This document shows positions 11,853 to 12,149 of a stretch of DNA of 12,149 bases, one piece after another. This DNA is from a virus (lineage: Duplodnaviria > Heunggongvirae > Uroviricota > Caudoviricetes): the IMG/VR virus record IMGVR_UViG_2671180755_000014, positions 1 through 12,149 of that record. One strand, given 5' to 3'. Within the stretch, counting starts at the first letter, position 1, and each line of letters starts with the position of its first letter. Both the position numbers and the translations under genes were made by a program. The notes under the pieces were generated by a model. The model was not told the DNA's origin, did no database searches, and saw only the letters and a program-made list of their open reading frames with translations.

Positions 11853-12149
11853 TATCTGAACAAACAACAGACTGTTGTTAACGAAAGGTTGGTTGTAACA
11901 CGGCGTATGGCACATGCGTCGTTAGCGGTCTGGGGACGTTAAAGGGGACAATCCACTCCTTGCTCGGGCAAACAAACCAGGTAGCCGGAATGTGCAAGTC
12001 AATGAGGATGCTGATAAGACGCCTAACCAGCGTGGCGATTCGGTTTGACGCCTGGGAAGAGACCAGGACGCAACGATGAGAGCATTGACGAGCAAGGCAT
12101 AAGTGCTGGTTCAATTCCAGACAGTCCCATTCAGATGGGAGGGTTGGGC

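Follow-up and report, generated by a model that had tools for sequence, protein, structure and literature searches.

Genetic organization of the early-left region

The DNA analyzed here (the window, 12,149 nucleotides) belongs to a lambdoid prophage of Escherichia coli O157:H7, and its last 610 bases, from position 11540 to the edge, are 100% identical to O157:H7 chromosomes. The plus strand presents, in this order, an XRE/S24 repressor gene, a ParA-family gene, a terminator, an A+T-rich stretch, and approximately 650 nt without an annotated gene, after which come yfdP, yfdQ, and yfdR, more early-left genes, xis, int, and mlrA. In E. coli strain 146N4, whose locus (L001) provides the coordinates beyond the window edge, the corresponding lambdoid prophage adjoins mlrA. 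The offset between window and L001 coordinates shifts by 1313 nt upstream of the repressor gene, and at L001 5289 to 6865 an IS3-family element breaks up the cro-like gene, the window copy of which (9141 to 9404) is intact. The ParA-family gene (10450 to 11535, plus strand) lies between the repressor gene and OL/pL and has its own terminator. This is the position of rexAB in lambda, and lysogens may express the gene for an accessory or defence function. Elsewhere in the window, matches to the Rfam families AgvB and STnc100 stand back to back (Table 1).

The operators and the promoter were recognized from an inverted repeat. A 47-nt stretch at OL is 79% complementary to positions 9431 to 9477, between the cro-like gene and the repressor gene, which identifies the two stretches as OL and as OR with pR. 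Both show the same layout (TTGnnn, 17 nt, CATCAT), and pL was therefore placed within OL, reading rightward. A consensus promoter scan of the DNA did not pick up pL; it is the OL/OR repeat that bears out the putative pL of an earlier, sequence-only reading of this DNA. Judging from the promoter sequence, the pL transcript would start near position 11860.

Table 1. Positions of the features discussed in the text, in window coordinates
Feature	Position	Strand	Sequence or remarks
AgvB, Rfam match	1037-1096	+	56.6 bits, above gathering score
STnc100 (RF02076), Rfam match	1098-1311	-	190.7 bits, above gathering score
Second 8-1-8 palindrome	9413-9429		CCTCTGAAATTCAGAGG; just downstream of pR; overlaps ribosome-binding site of cro-like gene
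Third perfect 8-bp-arm palindrome	9502-9520		
Intrinsic terminator	11571-11590	+	After ParA-family gene
OL operators and pL promoter	11806-11853	+	OL/OR inverted repeat
pL	11825-11853	+ (rightward)	-35 TTGATT (11825-11830), 17-nt spacer, -10 CATCAT (11848-11853)
Perfect 8-1-8 palindrome	11863-11879	+	AACAACAG-A-CTGTTGTT; about +3 to +19 of pL transcript; unique in window
Open minus-strand frame	11878-12149	-	129-aa ORF with TTG start in full genome; judged not a gene
Conserved core	11900-12091	+	About 190 nt; P1, P2, P4, P5, and loop pseudoknot
P1 hairpin	11900-11909 with 11913-11922	+	ACGGCGUAUG-GCA-CAUGCGUCGU; 91.2% of cells paired
P2 helix	11930-11933 with 11977-11980	+	CUGG/CCAG; U:A (51) to C:G (46), no exceptions
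Invariant 19-nt stretch, apparently single stranded	11980-11998	+	GGUAGCCGGAAUGUGCAAG; one copy in window, none expected by chance
P4 hairpin	12019-12022 with 12030-12033	+	ACGC-CUAACCA-GCGU; 3 of 4 pairs compensatory; 97.7% of cells paired
Pseudoknot	12025-12028 (P4 loop) with 12042-12045	+	AACC/GGUU; 99.2% of cells paired
P5 hairpin (hairpin of the sequence-only reading)	12051-12067	+	CCUGG-GAAGAGA-CCAGG; 4 of 5 pairs compensatory; loop almost invariant
P6, 5' strand	12075-12087	+	GAUGAGAGCAUUG; partner CAAUGCUAUCAGC at L001 9642-9654 (would be window 12181-12193)
T-arm-like hairpin	12106-12120	+	CUGG-UUCAAUU-CCAG; in P6 insert; read from sequence
Hairpin	12125-12140	+	UCCCAU-UCAG-AUGGGA; in P6 insert; read from sequence

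Palindrome and hairpin taken singly

Downstream of pL the G+C content returns to near 50 percent, as the sequence-only reading had remarked; it is 0.55 over positions 11899 to 12091. The perfect 8-1-8 palindrome and the hairpin CCTGG-GAAGAGA-CCAGG (arms at 12051 to 12055 and 12063 to 12067) that it had described were both found in the sequence at their positions. Its 31-aa plus-strand ORF at 11990 to 12085 had to be corrected, since the ATG ORF from 11990 ends at 12079 and comprises 29 codons and a stop. Neither the palindrome nor the hairpin stands out alone against chance. Perfect 5-7-5 hairpins number 18 in the window, compared with 11.9 in shuffled sequences, and perfect palindromes with 8-bp arms number 3, compared with 0.74 expected, with at least one present in 47.5% of the shuffles.

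Homology with the phages mEp460 and Stx2a_1447 begins only at 11879. The palindrome is therefore immunity-specific DNA, outside the conserved RNA described below, and it might form a 5' stem-loop or bind a protein. With the second palindrome close to pR, both early transcripts seem to begin with an 8-1-8 palindrome. A weak hairpin (GUUAAC-GAAAG-GUUGGU, 11877 to 11893) lies between the palindrome and P1 and is not conserved in mEp460.

Folding of single sequences was of limited use. The fold of 11860 to 12149 proposed in the earlier reading gave a z score of -1.25, so that its stability is not unusual, and the conserved structure emerged from the homologues. Folds of L001 9340 to 9665 were uninformative on either strand. 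Of the folds, that of the complete 651-nt leader alone is unusually stable (z = -5.1, from 20 shuffles only), a result attributed chiefly to a 25-bp hairpin that lies beyond the window. What gives the RNA its significance is conservation and covariation across homologues, not this sequence by itself.

A conserved pseudoknotted RNA opens the pL transcript

The segment from 11900 to the window edge is almost certainly the 5' part of a multidomain structured RNA that opens the pL transcript, with a core family present in no curated library. It comprises the first two-thirds of a conserved pseudoknotted RNA that starts approximately 40 nt downstream of pL, at about +40, and takes up the first 300 to 430 nt or so of the early-left transcript. 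BLAST searches against phage genomes show that the sequence from 11879 onward is common to many temperate phages, in which it is unannotated or labeled "hypothetical protein."

The helices were named on an alignment of 97 distinct homologues. An all-against-all covariation screen proved too noisy, because the sequences fall into few clades, and was given up in favor of a test of the named helices. Across the 27 pairs, 93.8% of the alignment cells are paired, compared with 26 to 48% after the partners are shifted by one to three columns. Doubly changed cells number 276, compared with 97.5 ± 12.6 in column shuffles, and none of 500 shuffles reaches the observed value. Compensatory changes occur at 12 pairs. 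G-U and U-G pairs are frequent, and read from the opposite strand they would become A-C mismatches, which shows that the selected molecule is the plus-strand RNA. The suggestion of a structured RNA, one of three offered by the sequence-only reading, is therefore strongly supported, and its hairpin is helix P5 of the conserved fold.

The core consists of four helices, a pseudoknot, and an invariant stretch, and RNAalifold independently recovers P2, P4, and P5. In P1, one pair is G:C in 67 sequences and A:U in 30, without exception, and is the sole compensatory pair of that region. RNAalifold proposes an alternative in which both halves of P1 pair with the invariant 19 nt. This alternative excludes the local P1 hairpin and has 12 fully compatible pairs, with no compensatory change, as its partner bases do not vary. 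P2 encloses a variable insert of 20 to 44 nt across the homologues, with a conserved UCCUU. The 19-nt stretch (DNA form GGTAGCCGGAATGTGCAAG) is invariant in the alignment of the eight phages first found by BLAST. One pair of the pseudoknot is C:G in 76 sequences and A:U in 21, and the P5 stem varies as CCUGG/CCAGG, CCUCG/CGAGG, and GCCGG/CCGGC.

Additional hairpins of the P5 type flank the element on the same strand in L042 (7303 to 7875), L132, L077, L133, L153, L142, and L009 (mEp390). There are up to five per leader, with covarying stems and loops that read GAAAGA or GAAGAGA, which suggests a repeated protein-binding or tRNA-binding hairpin.

P6 and the linkage to tRNA

Helix P6 closes beyond the window edge, its partner strand lying approximately 95 nt downstream of the 5' strand, and the window thus cuts the RNA inside the P6 insert. 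True partners form helices of 11.2 bp on average, compared with 9.13 ± 0.21 bp for permuted partners, and none of 200 permutations reaches the observed value. Covarying variants of P6 include GGUAAGAGCAUUG/CAGUGCUCUUUCC, GAGAGCGCACU/AGUGCGCUC, and GAGAGUAUUUA/UAAGUACUCUC. The two hairpins of the P6 insert are also present in Salmonella phage SPC32H, in which a genuine tRNA-Arg follows P6.

Four bases after P6 begins the sequence GUGG, which in 27 loci supplies the opening base pair of a true tRNA-Arg(UCU); this tRNA starts 4 nt after P6 in the epsilon15-like phages and in some other loci. In the prophage studied here, the position is held by a tRNA-like domain with an acceptor-type helix, GUUGUGGUGA/UCACCACAAC, that encloses approximately 110 nt. 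The enclosed sequence starts with a D-arm-like hairpin, GCGC-AGGCUGAU-GCGC, which covaries in other variants. At its normal threshold ARAGORN reported no tRNA or tmRNA in the window or in L001 9000 to 10100, and its low-threshold calls were inconsistent.

tRNAs occur within 2.5 kb of the element at 48 of 153 loci, all on the same strand and at fixed offsets, and most loci are without an intact adjacent tRNA. In P1-like phages a tRNA with the anticodon CAU (annotated as tRNA-Ile in P7) ends approximately 12 nt before the P1 helix. Some units, such as L030, seem to comprise nothing but the RNA, tRNA-Arg, and a terminator. The element therefore combines covarying conserved structure with same-strand tRNA adjacency, the two marks of a tRNA-linked structured phage RNA.

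Distribution and genomic contexts

The element is present in 1832 of 5426 complete E. coli genomes, with 554 of its places on plasmids, and no annotated feature underlies it among the E. coli matches listed. The invariant 19-mer has at least 120 exact matches in IMG/VR viral contigs and 24 among species-representative genomes, 22 of these in Enterobacterales and 2 in doubtful Bacillota bins. P1-like, epsilon15-like, and lambdoid phages carry the element, that is, three unrelated backbones and operon contexts.

In mEp460, Stx2a_1447, and mEp390 the element directly follows the repressor gene, and at 73 loci the gene immediately before it encodes a CI-type repressor. Of the distinct loci, 48% have a strong promoter in the 220 nt upstream, compared with 2.4% on the reverse strand. 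In P7 the element starts 6 nt after tRNA-Ile, upstream of ban, and D6 has the same tRNA-element junction. The ban-tRNA operon that carries the element in P1, P7, and D6 also holds a partial STnc100 match. In the epsilon15-like phages SPC32H, ZX5, and Tyrion, the element occupies a small plus-strand cassette between portal-side and terminase genes, and in the SPC32H cassette it abuts tRNA-Arg. The genes downstream of the element encode tRNA, Ban helicase, YfdP, YfdQ, YfdR, a ParB-like protein, and others.

Two further observations concern the carriers. In L112, a D6-like relative of P1, the next gene downstream, whose ORF begins 360 nt beyond the 19-mer, encodes a domain like Tad2 (Thoeris anti-defence 2; E = 1e-9). 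The element is also carried by Stx2a phages of the delta subtype (Stx2a_1447 and WGPS2) and by Stx2c phages, in which the interval from the repressor gene to the yfdP-like gene contains no annotated N gene. Within O157 clade 8, Stx2 production by strains with the delta phage has been described as relatively low (PMC9997748).

The leader downstream of the element

The leader of approximately 650 nt is untranslated. It is G rich over the structured part and then C rich before yfdP (L001 9711 to 9900), where it could load Rho. Just upstream of yfdP, at L001 9839 to 9945 and thus beyond the window, there is a boxA-resembling CGCUCUUUUUACAAAAC followed by the 25-bp hairpin; this 3' part of the leader is common to SfV, SfII, and SfIV. 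Most loci, this one included, have no predicted intrinsic terminator in the leader, and in several others (the L042 group and L089) strong intrinsic terminators stand between the element and the early-left genes.

Three variants that have no P6, L089 (approximately 3345 to 3380), L033, and L046, present after P5 a hairpin and then (U/A)GCUCUUUAA(C/U/A)AAU. We take GCUCUUUAA to be boxA-like from the boxA consensus, and the corresponding word in L089, UGCUCUUUAACAA, is presumably the rrn boxA sequence. The 3' strand of P6 reads UGCUCUY, which is base paired and covarying, so that a boxA reading of it is a lead only.

Searches for a known identity

Searches of Rfam 15 with the window, the extended leader, and six to seven other variants, at the gathering score and at permissive E values, matched no family to the element, and the best score in the region was no better than E = 2. 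The Rfam search proposed in the sequence-only reading thus gave no family, and it is the covariation that bears out the structured RNA. A covariance model built from the alignment (R1) finds one copy in the window, at 172.8 bits, and nothing else above 5 bits, the pR side included.

The put RNA of HK022 was considered and rejected as a homologue. R1 scores 10.4 bits in HK022, on an A+T-rich hairpin that lies downstream of putL and outside put, and local alignment to putL (p of approximately 0.04) and putR (approximately 0.76) gives no significant homology. Residue G35, at the junction of the two put stems, is essential for put activity (PMC9378689); its counterpart is not conserved here, for the 97 homologues have U, C, or A after CGUCG. 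The RNA turned up in no literature search, whether by topic or by exact sequence words, although it may have been mentioned in passing, for instance for P1. The element is apparently a new RNA family, of the structured phage leader or tRNA-linked RNA kind.

Possible roles of the RNA

The best explanation, which we hold tentatively, is that the element may be a stable, self-contained noncoding RNA that is cotranscribed with tRNAs, cut free by tRNA-processing enzymes, and protein binding early in lytic growth. RNase P would cut between CGUU and GUGG, at the junction with the downstream tRNA-Arg or tRNA-like domain, and in P1-type phages 3' processing of the upstream tRNA-Ile would free the RNA. 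Its role once freed would be to bind proteins at an early stage of lytic growth, and its candidate contact surfaces are the invariant P5 loop, GAAGAGA, and the invariant 19 nt. The same module in three unrelated phage backbones is as expected of a self-contained RNA gene. The fixed tRNA junctions, the tRNA-like domain, and the units of RNA, tRNA-Arg, and terminator fit an RNA freed by RNase P and 3' processing, which would be stable and might act in trans. The adjacency to CI-type repressor genes and the proximity of promoters (usually at approximately 20 to 130 nt) fit a cis-acting leader equally well, and the strong terminators between the element and the early-left genes are unexplained by a merely excised RNA. 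The scarcity of loci with an intact tRNA beside the element also counts against this explanation.

A cis-acting leader for processive antitermination, similar to HK022 put or the Bacillus EAR element, comes a close second and is possible, if on balance improbable. The nascent RNA would bind and modify the elongation complex, perhaps with Nus factors at the boxA-like sequences, and transcription from pL would pass terminators and Rho through the leader to yfdP-yfdQ-yfdR, xis, and int. The placement near +40 in a prophage without N argues for this, as do the 73 loci with a CI-type repressor gene, the enrichment of upstream promoters, and the strong terminators of the L042 group and L089. The untranslated leader with its potential Rho-loading stretch, the GCUCUUUAA words after P5 in the three variants lacking P6, and CGCUCUUU with the 25-bp hairpin before yfdP are also consistent with it. 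Furthermore, mEp390, which by classification belongs to the same subfamily as HK022, has the element in place of putL, and the P1 stem CGGCG/CGUCG and CAUG resemble stem I of putL. However, each phage has one copy and none on the pR side, the similarity to put is not significant and lacks G35, and most leaders are without a predicted intrinsic terminator to be passed. Antitermination also has no obvious use in the units that contain only RNA, tRNA, and terminator, and in P1 the element comes late in the ban operon.

It is unlikely that the element is a ligand- or tRNA-sensing leader resembling a riboswitch, with the core as aptamer and the two exclusive folds of P1 gating early-left elongation. 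Long invariant unpaired stretches, a pseudoknot, and a multihelix junction are typical of aptamers, and the alternative P1 pairing proposed by RNAalifold would provide a switch. The loops of P5 and of the additional GAAAGA hairpins show AGA, a triplet that could pair with the anticodon UCU of the linked tRNA-Arg. Against such a switch, the downstream genes are mutually unrelated, the core overlaps no expression platform, compensatory change is missing from the alternative helix, and the P5 loop is constant whatever tRNA is linked.

Very unlikely, in turn, is a classical N-utilization site in which P5 serves as boxB for an N-like protein encoded elsewhere in the phage. The boxB loop of lambda nutL is GAAGA, which the purine-rich GAAGAGA loop resembles; the sequence-only reading had called the hairpin boxB-like for its purine-rich loop and had offered an N leader with nutL as one possibility. 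Hairpins of the same type are repeated in some leaders, and boxA-like sequences occur nearby. However, the loop has 7 nt and not the 5 of a GNRA-like boxB loop, and P5 is embedded in a larger covarying fold. The earlier reading had detected no N ORF, and extension of the sequence to the right agrees, as the first genes are yfdP, yfdQ, and yfdR, with no N-like ORF in this prophage or in related loci and the ten commonest families of downstream ORFs contain no N-like Pfam domain. Downstream of pR there is no hairpin of the P5 type, and no boxA lies upstream of P5 in the window.

A protein-coding gene on the minus strand, entering from the right as the sequence-only reading had also considered, is scarcely credible: the frame is indeed open (TAA at 11878 to 11880, no stop up to the window edge), is free of stops in 69 of the 97 variants, and is annotated as a CDS in the mEp460 record (hypothetical protein mEp460_037), but an open frame fits a G-rich plus strand, and the ORF starts with TTG, has no Pfam match, and was never called by the NCBI pipeline in the RefSeq genomes inspected. 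The conserved blocks are split by inserts of 20 to 44 nt and 13 to 24 nt, with length differences that are not multiples of three, and therefore change frame between variants. The 19-nt stretch is invariant at all codon positions, and the region shows compensatory changes along with G-U pairs of the plus strand.

Significance and comparison with known systems

The element could, with considerable reservation, represent an undescribed class of complex-folded phage RNA, in which a pseudoknotted core (about 190 nt) is joined to a further domain and to a fused tRNA or a mimic of one, the whole forming an RNA-only device that acts on the host transcription or translation machinery. If so, in one version a put-like element modifying RNA polymerase would take the place of N. 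The other would be a sensor of the rare tRNA-Arg(UCU) through the AGA-bearing loops GAAGAGA and GAAAGA, gating early-left expression. If the present interpretation of the segment holds, a common, strongly conserved, and complex RNA stands unannotated in one of the best-studied phage groups, including lambdoid prophages of pathogenic E. coli (the Stx2a-delta and Stx2c phages) and phage P1. Its position corresponds to that of N in lambda and of put in HK022, and the RNA would therefore bear on early-left expression in lambdoid phages without N. As it is physically fused to rare-codon tRNAs, it would also bear on the role of phage tRNA cassettes. Model R1 is usable for further searches, and the compensatory pairs, the pseudoknot, and the P5 loop offer testable mutations.

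Among known systems, putL and putR of HK022 are likewise RNAs that need no dedicated phage protein, found right after pL in a lambdoid phage without N, and in some genomes followed by terminators as the element is. The base of P1, where CAUG precedes CGGCG/CGUCG and a G-U pair is present, resembles stem I of putL. Terminator read-through at put depends on the zinc-binding domain of the beta-prime subunit. However, put is about 70 nt long, with two stems, and occurs in both early operons, whereas the core of the element, at about 190 nt, contains five or more helices plus a pseudoknot, and the element occurs once per phage. Unlike put, it is linked to tRNA and is also present in P1-like and epsilon15-like phages. 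The nutL site of lambda also lies at the start of the pL transcript and has a short G+C-rich hairpin with a purine-rich loop, but the element has neither an N gene nor a partner site at pR, its loop has 7 nt, and its hairpin is part of a larger conserved fold.

The rrn leaders, with boxB-boxA-boxC and the boxA sites for Nus factors, are likewise untranslated, highly structured, and part of tRNA-containing transcripts. The likeness to rrn boxA is limited to GCUCUUUAA or CGCUCUUU near the element in some variants, and in P6 the sequence is base paired and covarying. STnc100 is another structured prophage RNA, found both in this window and in the ban-tRNA operon of P1, P7, and D6, but its sequence and model are unrelated, and in the window it lies approximately 10 kb away on the other strand. 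GOLLD and ROOL are complex, conserved noncoding RNAs of temperate phages that stand beside tRNA genes and whose function is not evident from their context. The element has no Rfam match to either, and differs from both in being smaller, confined to phages of Enterobacterales, and often first in the early-left operon.
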